From Pseudidiomarina andamanensis (GTDB lineage: Bacteria > Pseudomonadota > Gammaproteobacteria > Enterobacterales > Alteromonadaceae), in assembly GCF_009734345.1 (NCBI RefSeq), contig NZ_CP032551.1:180001-212000 (forward strand): a DNA stretch of 32,000 nt, read 5' to 3'. Every line of letters starts with the position of its first letter. Position 1 is the stretch's first letter. Shown one piece after another: positions 15,639 through 22,834 of the stretch. The notes beneath the pieces were generated by a model. It was not told where the DNA came from. It ran no database searches and saw nothing but the letters and a program-made list of their open reading frames with translations. A program made the translations under genes and the position numbers.

Positions 15639-18275
15639 ATGGCAAAAGCGTTAGTTATTGTCGAGTCGCCAGCAAAAGCGAAGACAATTAATAAATATTT
15701 AGGGAATGATTTTGTGGTGAAGTCGAGCGTGGGTCACGTTCGCGACTTACCGACAAAATCAACCGCGACCGTCAAAACCAAGCCGCCGGCCGAAGTTCGA
15801 AAAATGACGCCGGAGCAAAAAGAAGCTTATCGGCAAGAGCGTGAGTTCCGAAAATTAGTGGCCCGAATGGGCATTGATCCGCAGCACGGCTGGGAAGCTC
15901 ACTACGAAGTGTTGCCCGGCAAAGAAAAGGTTGTGGCAGAACTGAAAAAGCTGGCAGCGAAAGCTGATGCTATTTACCTCGCAACGGATTTGGACCGCGA
16001 AGGGGAAGCCATTGCTTGGCACTTACGCGAACTGATTGGCGGCGATGACAGCCGGTTCCAGCGCGTGGTGTTTAACGAAATCACCAAAAAAGCCATTCAA
16101 GAAGCTTTCTCTCATCCGGCTGCTTTGAATATTGACCGTGTGAATGCACAGCAAACGCGTCGATTCCTCGATCGTGTTGTTGGCTTCATGGTGTCACCGT
16201 TATTGTGGAAGAAAATTGCGCGTGGGTTGTCAGCTGGGCGCGTACAATCCGTCGCGGTGCGCTTAGTAGTTGAGCGCGAACGCGAAATCAAAGCCTTTGT
16301 ACCAGAAGAATATTGGGATATTTACGCCGATTTATCGACGCAAAATAGTGATGCATTGCGTATGCAGGTGCAAAAGCACCTCGGCAAGACCTTTAAAGCG
16401 AACGATAAGGCCGCTGCCGACGCCGCTGTGGCTGCATTGAAGGGTGCCCAATACAAAGTCATAGACCGCGAAGATAAACCGACTAGCAGCCGTCCCTCGG
16501 CGCCGTTCATTACATCAACCCTGCAACAGGCCGCTAGTACGCGGTTAGGTTTCGGGGTGAAAAAGACCATGATGTTAGCGCAGCGTTTGTACGAAGCGGG
16601 TCATATTACCTACATGCGTACCGACTCAACCAACTTGAGCCAAGAGGCTGTGGCTACTTGTCGAGACTACATTGGCAAGAACTTCGGCAGCGATTATTTG
16701 CCAGCGAAACCGAACGTTTATGGCTCTAAGCAAAATGCACAAGAAGCGCACGAGGCCATTCGTCCTTCAAGCGTCGGCGTGAAGTCAGAAAGTTTGCGTG
16801 ATATGGAACGCGATGCACAGCGTTTGTATGAACTCATTTGGCGCCAATTTGTGGCGTGTCAAATGACGCCAGCTCAATACGATGCAACCACCATTTCCGT
16901 GCAAGCCGGTGATTATGAGCTGCGTGCCCGTGGGCGAGTGTTGCGCTTCCCTGGCTGGACCAAAGTGCAGCCGCCAGCGGGCTCGAAGAATAATGAAGAT
17001 GCAACCTTACCTGATGTGAAAAAAGGTGAAGAATTGGCTCTGCAACAGCTTGACCCGCAGCAACACTTTACCAAGCCGCCGGCGCGCTTTAGCGAAGCTT
17101 CGTTAGTCAAAGAGCTTGAAAAGCGCGGTATCGGCCGCCCATCAACCTATGCGTCAATTATTTCAACCATTCAAGATCGTGGCTATGTGCGGGTAGAAAA
17201 CCGCCGGTTCTACGCGGAGAAAATGGGTGAGATAGTCAATGACCGTTTGGTTGACAACTTCCCGCGTTTATTGAACTACAGTTTCACCGCTGAAATGGAA
17301 CAAGCGCTAGATGAGATTGCCGAAGGGAACCGCAATTGGAAATCGACATTAGATCAGTTCTACGACGATTTCAGTGCGAAATTACAGCAAGCCGAAATGA
17401 CCCCAGAAGAGGGCGGTATGCGCCCGAATCAAATGGTGCTGACCGACATTAAATGTCCGAAGTGCGGTCGTCCGATGGGTATTCGTACCGCATCAACCGG
17501 CGTGTTCTTGGGTTGTTCTGGCTACGAACTACCGCCAAAAGAGCGTTGCACGCAAACCATGAACCTGTTGCCAGGTGAAGAAGCCGTAAGCGTCAAAGAC
17601 GATGACGACGAAGCGGAAACCATGGCGCTGCGCGCGAAAAAACGTTGCCCGAAATGTGGTACGGCAATGGACAGTTATTTAATTGACCAAGAACGCAAAC
17701 TGCACGTGTGTGGTAATAACCCAGCGTGTGATGGCTATGTGGTTGAGCAGGGCGAATTCCGCATTAAAGGTTACGATGGGCCAGTGCTTGAATGTGACCG
17801 TTGTGGCAGTGATATGCAGTTGAAAACCGGCCGTTTTGGTAAGTATTTTGATTGTACCAACAGCGAGTGTAAGAACACCCGTAAGTTACTGAAAAACGGC
17901 CAACCAGCGCCACCAAAAGAAGATCCCGTGCCGTTCCCTGAACTGCCGTGTGAAGACTCGAACGCGTACTTCGTATTGCGTGACGGTGCGTCGGGTGTGT
18001 TTTTGTCAGCGAATACCTTCCCGCGTTCACGTGAAACCCGTGCGGTGAAAGTGAGTGAGCTGAAGCGCTTTAAAGATCGCATTCCAAGTAAGTTCCATTA
18101 CTTAGCGGAAGCGCCTGAAAAAGACGACGATGGCAACGAAGCCATTGTACGTTACAGCCGCAAGAACAAAGAACAGTACGTGATTACCGAAGTGAATGGT
18201 AAAGCGACAGGTTGGCAAGCGTTTTACTCTGGTGGTGTTTGGCGCGTCGAAGCAAAGAAGAATAAACGCAAGTAA
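15639..18275 (+). CDS. topA: DNA topoisomerase I
   Basis: 878 aa. It has the Toprim N-terminus [22 protein letters not shown], the active-site region ITYMRTDS, and C-terminal Cys4 zinc ribbons (CPKCGRPM..., CPKCGTAM..., CDRCGSDM...). Confidence 0.97.
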
Positions 18276-18295
18276 ACAAAGAAGCGAGAACCAAA

Positions 18296-19849
18296 GTGTT
18301 TGACTATCTTAGAGTGACTAATTTACGTGCTTTTAAAGACTCCGGAAAAATAAAACTTAATCCATTGACTATATTGGTGGGGAAGAATAGTTCCGGGAAA
18401 AGTACGTTAGCCCGTGTGTTGCCTTTGTTAAGACAATCTGTAGAGGTAAGTACTCGAGGACCAATTCTATGGTTTGGAAATAAATATGTTGATTTTGGTA
18501 GCTTCGCAACAGCAATAAACTCGAATGCAGATACTAAAGAGATAACTTTTGAAATAGGCTTGAAAACACTCCTAGGGCAATTCGTGTATTTATCTAACTC
18601 GAAAAAAAATAAAGATGATTTTAATCGAGAAATAAAGATTGCGCTCACTCTTTGTGATGATAATAAATCTACTAAATTGAAATCTTTTAGTGTAGTTAGT
18701 GACGATTTATCAATAGATGTAAGAAACACCTCTGGCTCCAAAGCGGTTATTGAATTGAACGGTGTTCAGGTAACTTCCTTATCTGCAACAATTGAAAATG
18801 CAATTGATTTTGGTTTACTTCCAGATTTAGCAATAGTTCTGGAGGGTGAAAGTAAATCTAAGAATTATTATTTTGATGATAATTCAAAATATAAATTAGA
18901 CCTTCTAAAAAAATACTCTGATAGTTATAAATTGAAATTCGAAAGTGAAGAATCTTCAAATAAATTCTATTCGGAGCTATTAGATATTACCGATTTATCA
19001 TTTTTTGGGTATAAATCTAATATAAATTATCTCGCTGAGCGGCATGGCATATTTGAAAGTGCTCTAAAACTAAATGATGAGCAGCTCAGGCAGATATGGA
19101 ATGATTCGGTAATATTAAATATTCCACACCTCATAATGATGGTTAATCATCTAATTCACGAGCAAATGAAGAATATTTCTTATGTTGCTCCAGTCCGAGC
19201 TTTTGCAGAAAGGTACTATAGATTTCAGGACCTGCAAGTAAAAGAACTAGATCATACAGGCTCGAATTTAGCAATGCTGCTTTTGTCGCTAAAAAATAAA
19301 CATTTATCTGATTTCAAAGGCTGGATTAAAAAACATTTAAGGTTTGAAATAAGTGTTGACCCAGTTGGTAATCATTATGCAATAAGCGTAAAACCAGAAG
19401 GCTATAAAAAGTTTCATAATTTAAGCGATATGGGATTTGGATTTTCGCAAATACTTCCAGTTGTTGTATCGATGTGGATGAGTACTAACACGAAGGCATC
19501 TCCGAGATTTAGATATTTTGGTGATGAAACTAATGTCGATAAAATAATAGTAATAGAGCAACCTGAATTGCATTTACATCCAGAGATGCAAGATATTTTA
19601 GCGTCCACAATAGTTAATGTTGCTAGCAATTATAAGAATTTAAGGATTAAGTTCTTAATTGAGACGCATAGTAAAACATTTATCGATGCAATAGGTCGCT
19701 GCATTCGAGCAAAGGAAATAGATTCAGATTCTGTATCCATTAATATCGTTGAGCATGAGGCAATTTCGGATACGTCGGTAGTAAAACAGTCAAGCTTTAA
19801 TGAACAGGGGCAACTGCTGAATTGGCCGCTTGGCTTTTTCTCGTCGTGA
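18296..19849 (+). CDS. ABC/AAA_21-type ATPase (DUF3696-like C-terminus); AriA-like or OLD-family ATPase component of a candidate defence pair
   Basis: GTG start 20 nt after the topA stop. The N-terminus MFDYLRVTNLRAFKDSGKIKLNPLTILVGKNSSGKST carries Walker A (18380-18406). A YVAPVR block follows, then the signature-like LSDMGFGFSQ (19421-19450). Walker B is KIIVIEQPELHLHP (19541-19582) and the H-loop is ETHS (19661-19672). The C-terminal NWPLGFF tail is typical, as I recall, of DUF3696-containing ATPases. About 230 aa of K/N/S-rich insert separates Walker A from the rest. Confidence 0.8.
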   Translation: MFDYLRVTNLRAFKDSGKIKLNPLTILVGKNSSGKSTLARVLPLLRQSVEVSTRGPILWFGNKYVDFGSFATAINSNADTKEITFEIGLKTLLGQFVYLSNSKKNKDDFNREIKIALTLCDDNKSTKLKSFSVVSDDLSIDVRNTSGSKAVIELNGVQVTSLSATIENAIDFGLLPDLAIVLEGESKSKNYYFDDNSKYKLDLLKKYSDSYKLKFESEESSNKFYSELLDITDLSFFGYKSNINYLAERHGIFESALKLNDEQLRQIWNDSVILNIPHLIMMVNHLIHEQMKNISYVAPVRAFAERYYRFQDLQVKELDHTGSNLAMLLLSLKNKHLSDFKGWIKKHLRFEISVDPVGNHYAISVKPEGYKKFHNLSDMGFGFSQILPVVVSMWMSTNTKASPRFRYFGDETNVDKIIVIEQPELHLHPEMQDILASTIVNVASNYKNLRIKFLIETHSKTFIDAIGRCIRAKEIDSDSVSINIVEHEAISDTSVVKQSSFNEQGQLLNWPLGFFSS

Positions 19850-19854
19850 TACTA

Positions 19855-21009
19855 ATGTTAATAGTTCTTAGATCGATTAATTTGATAAACAACAGCCAAT
19901 CTTCTTCTGAAAAGAATGTTGCGTTATATAGAATTATTAATGCTGCGATCGAACAGAAACATGCGGTAATTATCGATGACGTTCCGGAATCTTATAATCC
20001 GAAGAATTTTGGAAGATTAGGGGACTTTGTTGTAGGTCAAATTATCAACATTAGGGATATATATAGCGAAAATGAAGCTATGAAAACTTTGGTAAACAAG
20101 TTTTTAATTGTAGATTTTTCGTTAGATCGATTGGCAATTAATTTAGACAGTTATGGAAATTTGATTGTCGGGTACACTAAGCTTGTTCAATCTAACTTCC
20201 TAGAAAGTAGCAATCTTATTCTTGAAGATTTAAATGATAAAGAGGTTTACTATTCTTTTGTCAATTATTATTGCTATCACAATCGGATAAATAATTTTAA
20301 TTTCAAACTCGATTTCAGAGCTGGTGGTGGTAGTAGTTGTCGACGTCACTTCGATGAATCGATAGATGATAATAGACTGACGATTTGTATAGTTGATAGC
20401 GACAGAAGGCATCCTAATGGGCCATTGGGAAGTACAGCGCAACTATTTAGTAACGTTTTTGATAGAGAACAAGACTTTTGGTATCTCGAGATTCTTCCTC
20501 ATCACGAAGCCGAGAACATTATTCCGATTAGTGTATATAAAAAGGGATATCTCTTGTTGAAAGAGAGAAAGCGAGCACAGCTTCTTGAGTCAATTAAGAG
20601 CGTGTTATATGGCAGCACCGGCTCTGTCCGTTATTTTGATTTTAAGAAAGGTTTGACTGCATACCAATACGGGTTCTTGGAAAGTACCTATGGAGCCTAC
20701 TGGGAACATGTTATAAATGGTTTAGATATCAACGAGTCATGTTTGGGGTGTATAAGAAATGTTTCATCTTTTACTAGGATAAAAAAAGGCTGCTACCATT
20801 GTCCGAATAATACTAATTGCGTATTTATCCAAAGTATTTGCTGCGATGCAGCAACCACCCTTCAGGTAATCAAAAAAAAGCAGGTTGATTTGAATCGATT
20901 ATTTAATAGCGCTATGAGTGAAGCCCCCGCTCAGGTTGATGAGATTCTTAGAATTGGAAAGGTTCTATTTTCGTGGGGCTATGCGTCAAACTTTCAGTCT
21001 GCTTCCTAA
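19855..21009 (+). CDS. Toprim/DUF4435-like putative nuclease with a C-terminal Cys4 zinc-ribbon-like cluster; AriB-like effector candidate
   Basis: A 395-aa track ORF runs from TTG 19822. I prefer ATG 19855, 5 nt after the ATPase stop, but 19822 with a 28-nt overlap cannot be excluded. Three acidic motifs occur in Toprim-like order: IIDDVPE (19969-19989), CIVDSDRRHP with DSD at 20395-20403, and HHEAEN with EAEN at 20506-20517. A CxxC-x13-CxxC cluster is at 20740-20802. The domain assignment is by motif recognition only and is not HMM-verified. Confidence 0.6.
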   Translation: MLIVLRSINLINNSQSSSEKNVALYRIINAAIEQKHAVIIDDVPESYNPKNFGRLGDFVVGQIINIRDIYSENEAMKTLVNKFLIVDFSLDRLAINLDSYGNLIVGYTKLVQSNFLESSNLILEDLNDKEVYYSFVNYYCYHNRINNFNFKLDFRAGGGSSCRRHFDESIDDNRLTICIVDSDRRHPNGPLGSTAQLFSNVFDREQDFWYLEILPHHEAENIIPISVYKKGYLLLKERKRAQLLESIKSVLYGSTGSVRYFDFKKGLTAYQYGFLESTYGAYWEHVINGLDINESCLGCIRNVSSFTRIKKGCYHCPNNTNCVFIQSICCDAATTLQVIKKKQVDLNRLFNSAMSEAPAQVDEILRIGKVLFSWGYASNFQSAS

Positions 21010-21037
21010 AATCGATAACTTTGCAATCGTATGGTTA

Positions 21038-21205
21038 TCATTCGCTATTAGCTACATCTGCGATTAATTCGCTCCTTACTATAACAACCTGATTATCCGC
21101 CTCAAATCTCAATTTCACTTGTTTTCCTTCAATCTTAACGACGCAAATTCTAATTTTATTATCGATCACAATCTCTTCACCGATCTTTCTCGTTAATGTC
21201 AACAT
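21038..21205 (-). CDS. CsrA/RsmA-family RNA-binding protein paralog (55 aa), island-encoded
   Basis: Not in the ORF track because it is shorter than 60 aa. My hand translation gives 56 codons: MLTLTRKIGEEIVIDNKIRICVVKIEGKQVKLRFEADNQVVIVRSELIADVANSE*. A gap-free alignment to E. coli CsrA ([47 protein letters not shown]...) gives 16 identities in residues 1-47. These include the RNA-binding positions L2, L4, R6 and R44, with K7 in place of R7. GGAG lies 10 nt upstream of the ATG. Confidence 0.72.
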   Translation of the reverse strand: MLTLTRKIGEEIVIDNKIRICVVKIEGKQVKLRFEADNQVVIVRSELIADVANSE

Positions 21206-21317
21206 GTCCTTGATTCTCCGTTAAAATAAATATTGTAAAGGAAAGTCTAGGGCATATCGTAAAATTAAGACATCACTACGGAAGTTGTTGGTTATTGTCG
21301 TACATTGTAGTCAACTA

Positions 21318-22443: not shown

Positions 22444-22520
22444 CGGCGAGTAGCGCAGCTTGGTAGCGCACTTGTTTTGGGTACAAGGGGTCGCTGGTTC
22501 GAATCCAGTCTCGCCGACCA
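22444..22520 (+). tRNA. tRNA-Pro (anticodon UGG)
   Basis: I hand-folded a 77-nt cloverleaf. The acceptor is CGGCGAG/CTCGCCG and the anticodon arm is CTTGT-TTTGGGT-ACAAG. The T-loop is TTCGAAT and CCA is encoded. It is close to E. coli proM. Confidence 0.92.
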
Positions 22521-22538
22521 TTTCTTAAAGTGCGAAAT

Positions 22539-22615
<77 letters not shown>

Positions 22616-22642
22616 TTAAAGCCCTGGCACAACATATGAAGT

Positions 22643-22719
22643 GGTGGCTGTAGCTCAGTTGGTAGAGCCCCGGATTGTGATTCCGGTTGTCGTGGGTTCA
22701 AGTCCCATCAGCCACCCCA
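22643..22719 (+). tRNA. tRNA-His (anticodon GUG) with the encoded extra 5' G(-1)
   Basis: 77 nt. The sequence GGTGGCTGTAGCTCAGTTGGTAGAGCCCCGGATTGTGATTCCGG... is nearly identical to E. coli hisR. CCA is encoded. Confidence 0.92.
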
Positions 22720-22757
22720 TTTCTCTGCTTTTCAGCATTATCTCAAAAATTTGAAGT

Positions 22758-22834
22758 CGGCGAGTAGCGCAGCTTGGTAGCGCACTTGTTTTGGGTACAA
22801 GGGGTCGCTGGTTCGAATCCAGTCTCGCCGACCA
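22758..22834 (+). tRNA. tRNA-Pro (anticodon UGG), second identical copy
   Basis: It is base-for-base identical to 22444-22520. The identity extends 2 nt on each side (22442-22522 = 22756-22836). Confidence 0.92.

Follow-up and report, generated by a model that had tools for sequence, protein, structure and literature searches.

A low-GC gene pair of Pseudidiomarina andamanensis as a probable two-gene anti-phage module of an OLD-type ABC ATPase and a Toprim-like partner

Which function is encoded by the two AT-rich genes that follow topA in Pseudidiomarina andamanensis? They lie in a stretch of 32,000 nucleotides of the contig NZ_CP032551.1 (assembly GCF_009734345.1, positions 180,001 to 212,000, forward strand), which we call the window and to which all coordinates refer unless a locus of another genome is named. 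A preliminary description, made from the sequence alone, had placed two same-strand open reading frames (ORFs) at 18296 to 21009 and regarded them as an ATP-binding cassette (ABC) ATPase with a Toprim/DUF4435 nuclease, that is, as a candidate PARIS-like or split-OLD system. Both ORFs are present, and our analysis supports the general architecture, in which an OLD-type ABC ATPase is accompanied by a separately encoded Toprim-like acidic-site protein in a probable anti-phage module. The two assignments are not, and the suspicion voiced in the same place that the pair might be a divergent or unclassified variant was right. We consider it probable that these two genes make up an autonomous anti-phage module, acquired horizontally, in which an OLD-type ABC ATPase is combined with a separate nuclease effector, and which is sister to the PADLOC candidate PDC-M55. 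The two genes are:

18296 to 19849, plus strand: gene 1, NsnB-type (OLD-clade) ABC ATPase with a DUF3696 tail, 517 amino acids, WP_156265733.1
19855 to 21009, plus strand: gene 2, partner or effector, 384 amino acids, WP_156265734.1, annotated as 'hypothetical protein'

The two genes form a strict pair. We examined 19 independent loci, namely 14 chromosomal or metagenomic ones, four plasmids and one Pf-like prophage; the 14 comprise five loci reached from the ATPase or the first homologs, eight reached independently from gene 2 patterns, and the window (an alignment of 74 sequences proved too diverse for locating loci). In 19/19 loci the partner gene lies directly behind the ATPase gene in the same orientation and either overlaps or abuts it. 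When the flanking ORFs of the 14 chromosomal or metagenomic loci were compared all against all, no conserved third gene emerged, and the annotations of the four plasmids and the Pf prophage list no DUF262- or ParB-like product beside the pair. The pair occurs patchily across phyla, at unrelated chromosomal sites and on plasmids, a transposon and a prophage. The plasmids belong to Bacillus thuringiensis, Lacticaseibacillus paracasei, Planococcus glaciei and Ruegeria, and there the pair neighbours toxin–antitoxin systems, insertion sequence elements or DUF4297. At one locus it lies near a phage GPA replication gene, and among its neighbours elsewhere are a resolvase, a NERD nuclease, PD-Lambda-1 (4.6e-118) and a mad2-like methyltransferase. 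Pseudomonas phage 62-2 (OR621022.1), a 12.6-kb Pf-like filamentous prophage of P. aeruginosa, carries the pair at its accessory end beside the repressor (L051, 172-2808), and accessory regions of this type are a documented defence hotspot (PMC11878078). Depositors labelled this member 'putative OLD family nuclease' (partner) and 'rad50 ATPase' (ATPase), which is annotation only. At other loci, the window included, the pair is bordered by housekeeping genes.

In a Tn7-like element with TniB/TniQ (L001, 2893-6304), a pair of an AAA ATPase and an S8 peptidase directly precedes the gene pair, and we take it to resemble the IetAS defence system; a gene with a Lon_C/ChlI domain follows the gene pair there. 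Two metagenome-assembled genomes (MAGs) of Bacteroidia/Prevotellaceae contain a second cassette within about 1.3 kb of the pair (L018, 8317-10240; L019, 1684-3592). It is common to both MAGs and consists of a 438-amino-acid AAA_15/AAA_21 ATPase overlapping a 209-amino-acid protein without a Pfam match, and it may be another uncharacterised module of an ATPase and a small partner.

The product of gene 1 is 100% identical to WP_156265733.1 of Pseudidiomarina andamanensis. Judged by its sequence, it is an OLD-clade ABC ATPase with the NsnB model as best fit. As had been expected in the preliminary description, it matches the Pfam families AAA_15 (1.1e-23), AAA_21 (3e-16) and, at residues 475-515, DUF3696 (PF12476; 1.1e-4, 22.7 bits against a cut-off of 22), and all motifs quoted there are found, with the numbering of K35 correct. 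Gene 1 has more than 2,100 homologs, and motif conservation was counted across 120 of them:

18380 to 18406, plus strand: Walker A motif G29-KNSSGKS-T37 with K35; G, N, S, G, K and S in 120/120
18476 to 19165, plus strand: hypervariable insert, residues 61-290, a candidate sensor surface
19196 to 19198, plus strand: R301 in Y-x-A-P-x-R, Arg in place of the Q-loop Gln, 120/120
19427 to 19450, plus strand: signature variant D378-MGFGFSQ385, GxG rather than SGG; D, G, G, S and Q in 120/120
19544 to 19582, plus strand: Walker B motif IIVI-E421-Q422-PELHLHP, E-Q rather than the canonical D-E; EQPELHLHP in 120/120
19661 to 19672, plus strand: H-loop E456-T-H458-S, 120/120
19718 to 19846, plus strand: DUF3696 C-terminal tail with the end W510-P-x-G-F-F515; W, G and F in 120/120, P in 119/120

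Across homologs the signature variant reads DMGFG[YF]SQ. In the ABC ATPases, a Gln at the position of the catalytic base normally prevents hydrolysis, and the invariant E-Q Walker B suggests that gene 1 acts as an ATP-binding switch rather than as a motor with rapid hydrolysis. Conservation drops in the insert, where the mean top-residue frequency is 0.31-0.41 compared with 0.56-0.75 in the ATPase core; in analogy to other ABC-ATPase defence systems, we regard this region as a candidate sensor surface. Among the PADLOC models, NsnB scores best (1.3e-47), ahead of PDC-M55A (9.2e-44) and the ATPase model of HEC-03 (6.4e-30). Gene 1 also matches two models that carry the name AriA (1.3e-26 and 1.7e-17). 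Both agree with Pfam AAA_15/AAA_21 in length and matched range, and these matches are therefore not specific for PARIS. The ATPase family aligns with OLD ATPase domains at an hhalign probability of 98.9%.

For gene 2, we place the start at ATG 19855, 5 nt past the TGA of gene 1. The preliminary description had noted that gene 2 begins close to the gene 1 stop or overlaps it; its numbering started from a TTG at 19822, a start that did not hold. Homolog N-termini begin with MLI or MII at the ATG (MLIILRS in the closest homolog, MLIVLRS in the window), and WP_156265734.1 is exactly the 384-amino-acid product of this ATG. Gene 2 is a member of a large family and not an orphan. A word-index search returned only four relatives and missed the window protein itself; its cluster representative in the clustered protein database is a 56-amino-acid fragment, which probably hid gene 2 from this first homolog search. 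In the exhaustive profile search, the representatives of 50%-identity clusters numbered 1,951 at E<=1e-3, of which 1,567 also passed E<=1e-10. The top 150 are 265-396 amino acids long, and none of them is a fused ATPase–partner protein.

This family is hardly visible to existing models. Gene 2 alone matched nothing in Pfam or NCBIfam, and the product from the TTG start matched nothing there or in PADLOC. Equally, 74 diverse members, scanned at thresholds of E<=0.01 and E<=5, had no Pfam or NCBIfam match, and neither had the consensus sequences of the family and its subfamilies. Searches of PDB sequences with 5- and 136-sequence profiles of the family returned noise only. Among the families of particular interest, DUF4435, OLD-like_TOPRIM, RloB, DUF4276 and the PIN families of Pfam were matched by neither gene 2 nor the 74 relatives nor the consensus sequences, and the Pfam Toprim families by none of the 74 members or consensus sequences. 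The sole recurrent match is the PADLOC model PDC-M55B, found in 55/74 members. The family consensus sequences match it at 4.5e-10 to 4.3e-17 and no other PADLOC model, and the window protein matches it at 6.4e-4 (17.6 bits, residues 151-270).

We therefore turned to the predicted structure. An AlphaFold2 model from the 136-sequence alignment reached a predicted local distance difference test score (pLDDT) of 93.6 and a predicted template modelling score (pTM) of 0.92; a run on 5 sequences (pLDDT 57) was too poor for use. Conservation was counted over 136 sequences, and the protein divides as follows:

19855 to 20199, plus strand: N-terminal alpha/beta domain (residues 1-115), least conserved part, modelled as strands and helices in alternation
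20200 to 20544, plus strand: Toprim-like core, residues 116-230, in the order b1-E124, a1, b2-GGG, a2, b3-D181xD183, b4, H217-E218-x-E220-N221
20224 to 20238, plus strand: E124-D-L-N-D128, proposed Toprim glutamate motif; E124 in 136/136, D128 in 133/136
20323 to 20331, plus strand: G157-G-G159 loop after b2; 134/136, 123/136 and 136/136
20395 to 20403, plus strand: D181-S-D183, proposed Toprim DxD metal-binding motif; both Asp in 136/136
20503 to 20517, plus strand: H217-E218-A-E220-N221, third acidic cluster after b4; E218 in 129/136, E220 in 136/136
20638 to 20646, plus strand: D262-x-K264 pair of the C-terminal region; D in 131/136, K in 133/136, and G266 in 130/136
20740 to 20862, plus strand: Cys-rich segment C296xxC299...C313xxC316...C322...C329C330, short beta-hairpins in the model, strands 307-325

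In the modelled core, strand 120-123 ends at E124 and is followed by helix 128-142, strand 153-156 leading to G157-G-G159, helix 161-171, strand 176-180 leading to D181-S-D183, and strand 209-213, after which H217-E-x-E220-N is found; the C-terminal part is helical. E124, G159, D181, D183 and E220 are invariant in the family, and D128, G157, C178, P187, G192, T194, E218, P224, D262, K264, G266 and W374 are near-invariant. Of the three acidic motifs that the preliminary description had listed, IVDSD (residues D192/D194 in its numbering from the TTG, which is correct) and HHEAEN thus coincide with conserved sites. IIDDVPE, proposed there as the first motif, does not: D41 is an Asp in just 38/136 sequences, position 42 is mostly R or K, and position 45 mostly L. 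The true first acidic motif is LILE124DLND128. The N-terminal domain is possibly a PIN-like adaptor, in analogy to the inPIN part of NsnC and the PIN protein of HEC-03. The Cys-rich segment is a probable zinc-ribbon insert; of its cysteines only C299 is widely kept (110/136), and the insert is missing in one subgroup (P0002-P0004).

Is gene 2 then a Toprim protein? A Toprim domain is defined by a conserved Glu after b1 and a DxD after b3 (PMC12065111), and gene 2 fits this order, with E124 directly after strand 120-123 and D181xD183 directly after strand 176-180. In the model, E124, D181, D183 and E220 are located at the C-terminal ends of b1, b3 and b4. We compared the family by hhalign with an OLD-Toprim profile that was validated on solved Toprims of OLD, GajA and retron Eco8 (7e-14 to 8e-4); a target built from P2 Old, by itself or together with close viral relatives, lacked the depth for this comparison. 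Over 67 columns the two profiles align with the E, G and DxD in register (P=0.0025 to 0.005), such that the E124 motif corresponds to 'VEGxTE' of OLD, the GGG loop to its conserved 'GK', and D181xD183 to its DxD. The score of 26.5 was reached by 2/200 shuffles, and negative controls scored 12-15. By eye, OLD proteins have an 'hE(D/S)hL' motif after b4, with which the ExE motif of gene 2 did not align when the sequences beyond the DxD were compared by hhalign.

The same data leave some room for another reading, namely that the gene 2 core adopts a different Rossmann-like metal-binding fold, for example that of a PIN-like ribonuclease (RNase), or is a non-nuclease effector, and would still be a toxin under control of the ATPase. 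No structural or hidden Markov model (HMM) search gave a significant Toprim match: the HH probability of the hhalign comparison is only 7-12%, and a Foldseek search of the PDB with the gene 2 model found nothing below E=0.26, with generic flavodoxin-like PurE structures among the matches. Relatives of the ATPase are, moreover, paired with PIN proteins. On the other hand, the pattern 'hhhE[ND]xxD ... G ... hhhDxD' at the ends of b1, b2 and b3 is the Toprim signature (PMC12065111), the in-register alignment with the OLD-Toprim profile beats 99% of shuffles, and the top weak Foldseek matches are mostly OLD, GajA and retron Eco2 rather than PIN, with seven OLD-family Toprim structures among the top 16 non-significant ones. 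The label 'putative OLD family nuclease' on the Pf-phage member points the same way, as annotation only. We hence see moderate support, from sequence comparison and modelling, for a Toprim fold of gene 2, and find the non-Toprim alternative unlikely, with a small chance of being true.

The PARIS assignment deserves a direct comparison. In PARIS (Rousset 2022; Burman 2024), AriA sequesters AriB, a trigger releases AriB in an ATP-dependent manner, and the AriB Toprim dimer cuts tRNA; the anti-restriction proteins Ocr and Ptr are activators (PMC11464382, PMC12409363). The window pair has in common with PARIS the succession of an OLD-type ABC ATPase gene and a separate gene for a Toprim(-like) nuclease, as well as mobile carriage, which is by P4 satellites in PARIS and by a Pf prophage, plasmids and a Tn7-like element here. 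By analogy, sequestration and subsequent release would be a plausible logic for the window pair. One might thus take it for a divergent bona fide PARIS, composed of AriA and a DUF4435 protein AriB, with sequestration by an AriA hexamer, an Ocr-type trigger and tRNA cleavage by the AriB dimer. The gene order, the AriA matches of gene 1 and a match of the PADLOC AriB model to 1/74 family members (3.9e-4) would agree with this. However, the AriA models mirror generic AAA_15/AAA_21 and are far outscored by NsnB and PDC-M55A, and the ATPase matches an NsnB-type model with a DUF3696 tail. DUF4435 (PF14491), which the preliminary description had expected in gene 2, was matched nowhere in the family, not even at E<=5, and the consensus sequences match only PDC-M55B and not AriB. 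The proposed catalytic Glu of gene 2 is at position 124, and the catalytic Glu of AriB is at position 26 (PMC11464382). Gene 2 has a Cys-rich insert and an extra N-terminal domain of about 115 residues, and because this domain precedes the core, gene 2 exceeds AriB in length by the roughly 100 residues that had been noticed before. We consider a divergent PARIS extremely unlikely, and the assignment was rejected on the lack of DUF4435 in gene 2, the 74 relatives and the consensus sequences together with the single AriB match.

OLD and Gabija GajA are related to the pair by a homologous ATPase domain and by the E, G and DxD of gene 2 in register with the OLD Toprim. They differ in being one fused polypeptide, whereas two polypeptides are encoded here, and no helicase partner of the UvrD/GajB type accompanies the pair. 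PF20469 is found in P2 Old and in no gene 2 relative. A tblastn search of plasmids with the C-terminal half of P2 Old found nothing. A split OLD, the other earlier proposal, was ruled out, as PF20469 is unmatched and Foldseek gave no significant OLD match.

The PADLOC model that gene 1 fits best belongs to Menshen, a three-gene system (NsnABC) of the same ATPase clade that is experimentally phage-protective (Millman 2022; Li et al. 2025, PMC12065111) and for which control of an effector by the ATPase is the proposed logic. In NsnB, Arg replaces the Gln of the Q-loop, the signature reads GxG and the Walker B is altered (PMC12065111), and gene 1 shares the DUF3696 tail, the Q-loop Arg, the GxG signature and a Walker B other than D-E. 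Gene 2 likewise resembles NsnC in its two-part layout of an N-terminal alpha/beta domain and a nuclease-like core, and some NsnC effectors have a Toprim fold (PMC12065111). With NsnB as the best PADLOC match, the pair could be a degenerate or partial Menshen, that is, NsnB and NsnC without NsnA, either non-functional or reliant on a sensor encoded elsewhere. Yet NsnA (DUF262) was found at none of the 19 loci, where the pair stands alone, and the gene upstream in the window is topA; a complete Menshen is ruled out by the lack of NsnA beside the pair. About 1,950 representatives kept intact across phyla and mobile elements argue for an autonomous unit. Gene 1 also differs from NsnB in its Walker B (E-Q versus E-N), and the gene 2 family matches no NsnC model of PADLOC and neither of the Pfam families DUF4276 and RloB. 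Moreover, HEC-03 shows that two-gene systems of the same ATPase clade work alone. We give a Menshen remnant little credence.

HEC-03 is a validated two-gene system of an ABC ATPase and a PIN protein, both genes of which are required for defence (10.1101/2024.01.29.577857). It resembles the window pair in its related ATPase and as a stand-alone two-gene unit. Its effector is a VapC-like PIN RNase, in contrast to the Toprim-type E...DxD of gene 2, and the other, non-ATPase HEC-03 model is unmatched by gene 2 and its family. The remaining relative is PDC-M55, again a two-gene system of an ATPase and a partner, to which gene 1 (via PDC-M55A) and the core of the partner (via PDC-M55B) are similar. 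However, the PDC-M55B match never reaches the N-terminal domain or the C-terminal part of gene 2, and gene 1 fits NsnB slightly better than PDC-M55A. From these sequence comparisons the window pair looks like an unnamed family that is sister to PDC-M55 rather than a clear member of it.

How might such a module work? Our data show directly the domain anatomy of gene 1, the residue conservation, the pairing and the genomic contexts; the following mechanism is modelled on PARIS, on the AlphaFold 3 model of Menshen NsnB–NsnC and on HEC-03, and is conditional throughout. In the Menshen model, a pair of NsnB tails (DUF3696) grips NsnC by its N-terminal domain (PMC12065111), and by analogy we propose the DUF3696 tail of gene 1 as docking element for the gene 2 protein. 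Gene 1 would oligomerise, and its WPxGFF tails would hold the gene 2 protein inactive via the N-terminal domain of the latter. The hypervariable insert (residues 61-290) would recognise a phage cue, and ATP binding or an ATP-dependent rearrangement would then release or activate gene 2. Its Toprim-like two-metal site (E124, D128, D181, D183, E218, E220) could cut nucleic acid, with growth arrest or aborted infection as the outcome.

The genomic setting in the window fits an acquired module. The pair, whose proteins the preliminary description had called very AT-biased, is part of an islet in which the base composition changes sharply:

18276 to 21317, no strand: low-GC islet of about 3.0 kb between topA and folD, with gene 1, gene 2 and a csrA paralog

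GC content in the islet is 0.32-0.36 per segment (gene 1 0.34, gene 2 0.36, csrA-like gene 0.351, spacer before folD 0.34) compared with 0.505 in topA and 0.522 in folD, and GC at third codon positions (GC3) is 0.28-0.36 compared with 0.49-0.52 in the two flanking genes. The islet is a compositionally foreign, horizontally acquired tract, and its limits were taken from this break in GC and GC3 against topA and folD. It contains no integrase, and a repeat search of the islet gave no insertion scars or convincing flanking repeats. At its left edge, we observed an imperfect tandem duplication of 24 nt (18250-18297, 71% identity; AAGCAAAGAAGAATAAACGCAAGT / AAACAAAGAAGCGAGAACCAAAGT) that covers the topA stop and the gene 1 start and could be an insertion scar or chance.

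Gene 1 starts 20 nt past the topA stop on the same strand, and scans for promoters and terminators gave no signal above chance. These observations could suggest a housekeeping role in DNA topology or repair, with a RecF/Rad50-like ATPase and a nuclease, and in one database the Pf-phage ATPase is labelled 'DNA double-strand break repair rad50 ATPase'. Against this stand the foreign composition, the patchy spread over plasmids, a transposon, a prophage and unrelated chromosomal sites, the hypervariable insert, the closest characterised relatives, which are defence proteins, and the partner gene, which may be pseudogenised in some lineages. A repair function is in our view very unlikely.

Several observations also weigh against an anti-phage module. 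In the window, the islet is flanked by topA and folD and does not lie in a defence island. Searches with five-sequence family patterns found no relatives among viral contigs. With E-Q, the Walker B of gene 1 lacks the canonical catalytic Glu, and ATP hydrolysis may be slow or absent. In two unrelated lineages with an intact ATPase gene, two separate ORFs take the place of a single gene 2 homolog, of 270 and about 120 amino acids in Enterobacter (L011-L013, 6551-7665; a variant listed on 155 contigs) and of 122 and 239 amino acids on the Planococcus plasmid (L025, 3622-4825), which may reflect a pseudogenised toxic effector or a programmed frameshift. The comparison with PDC-M55 leads to a PADLOC phage defence candidate from guilt-by-embedding, one of 145 PDC systems that are explicitly untested (10.1101/2024.01.29.577857), and a full-text literature search for 'PDC-M55' found no paper. 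For the family as a whole, large, widespread and mobile as it is, we found no experimental test in the literature.

Besides the pair, the islet contains one further gene:

21038 to 21205, minus strand: csrA paralog, 55 amino acids, Pfam CsrA 3.6e-18, GC 0.351

It is convergent with gene 2, 28 nt from the gene 2 stop, and the sole member of its 90%-identity cluster. Because of this isolation and its location in the low-GC islet, it is probably a horizontally acquired extra copy and not the housekeeping csrA. It is absent beside the pair in other genomes, and is thus cargo of the islet and no part of the conserved module. Beyond folD, some 1.1 kb past the right end of the islet, there is a tRNA cluster (Pro-Arg-His-Pro, 22444-22834); the islet itself does not abut a tRNA gene. 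A scan of GTDB species-representative genomes returned no Pseudidiomarina locus, though the window fits both search patterns; the representative Pseudidiomarina genome may be without the islet.

The architecture of an OLD-type ATPase with a nuclease is known and will not surprise the specialist, since the pairing of OLD-type ABC ATPases with Toprim, HNH, restriction endonuclease or PIN nucleases is an established theme (10.1101/2024.01.29.577857). What is new here is an NsnB-type transducer as a proposed stand-alone sensor and a divergent family of Toprim-like effectors of about 2,000 clusters, for which there is no Pfam model and we found no published fold assignment in the literature. More tentatively, and with somewhat less than even confidence, we suggest that the pair represents a major defence family, autonomous and so far uncharacterised, which comprises some 2,000 clusters (50% identity) in Pseudomonadota, Bacillota and Bacteroidota. 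In such a family, the NsnB-type ATPase would sense cues directly via its insert and without NsnA, and the partner would found a new Toprim clade, characterised by a docking domain that resembles PIN, a divergent metal site of the E/DxD/ExE type and, optionally, a zinc ribbon. P2 Old, like AriB, cleaves tRNA; the target of the new clade, for example a specific tRNA, would be unlike that of AriB and P2 Old.

Dyads of an ABC ATPase and a nuclease, as in PARIS, Septu, Gabija, Menshen and HEC, are increasingly recognised as a dominant principle of bacterial immunity, and how the ATPase senses and controls its effector is understood only for PARIS and partly for a few others. The family described here would be a compact test case of a Menshen-type transducer that operates with no separate sensor and with an invariant E-Q Walker B. 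Annotators can mark 'hypothetical proteins' similar to WP_156265734 as probable Toprim-like effectors when they are encoded downstream of a DUF3696 ATPase. Finally, the presence of the pair on Pf prophages of P. aeruginosa bears on resistance in phage therapy.

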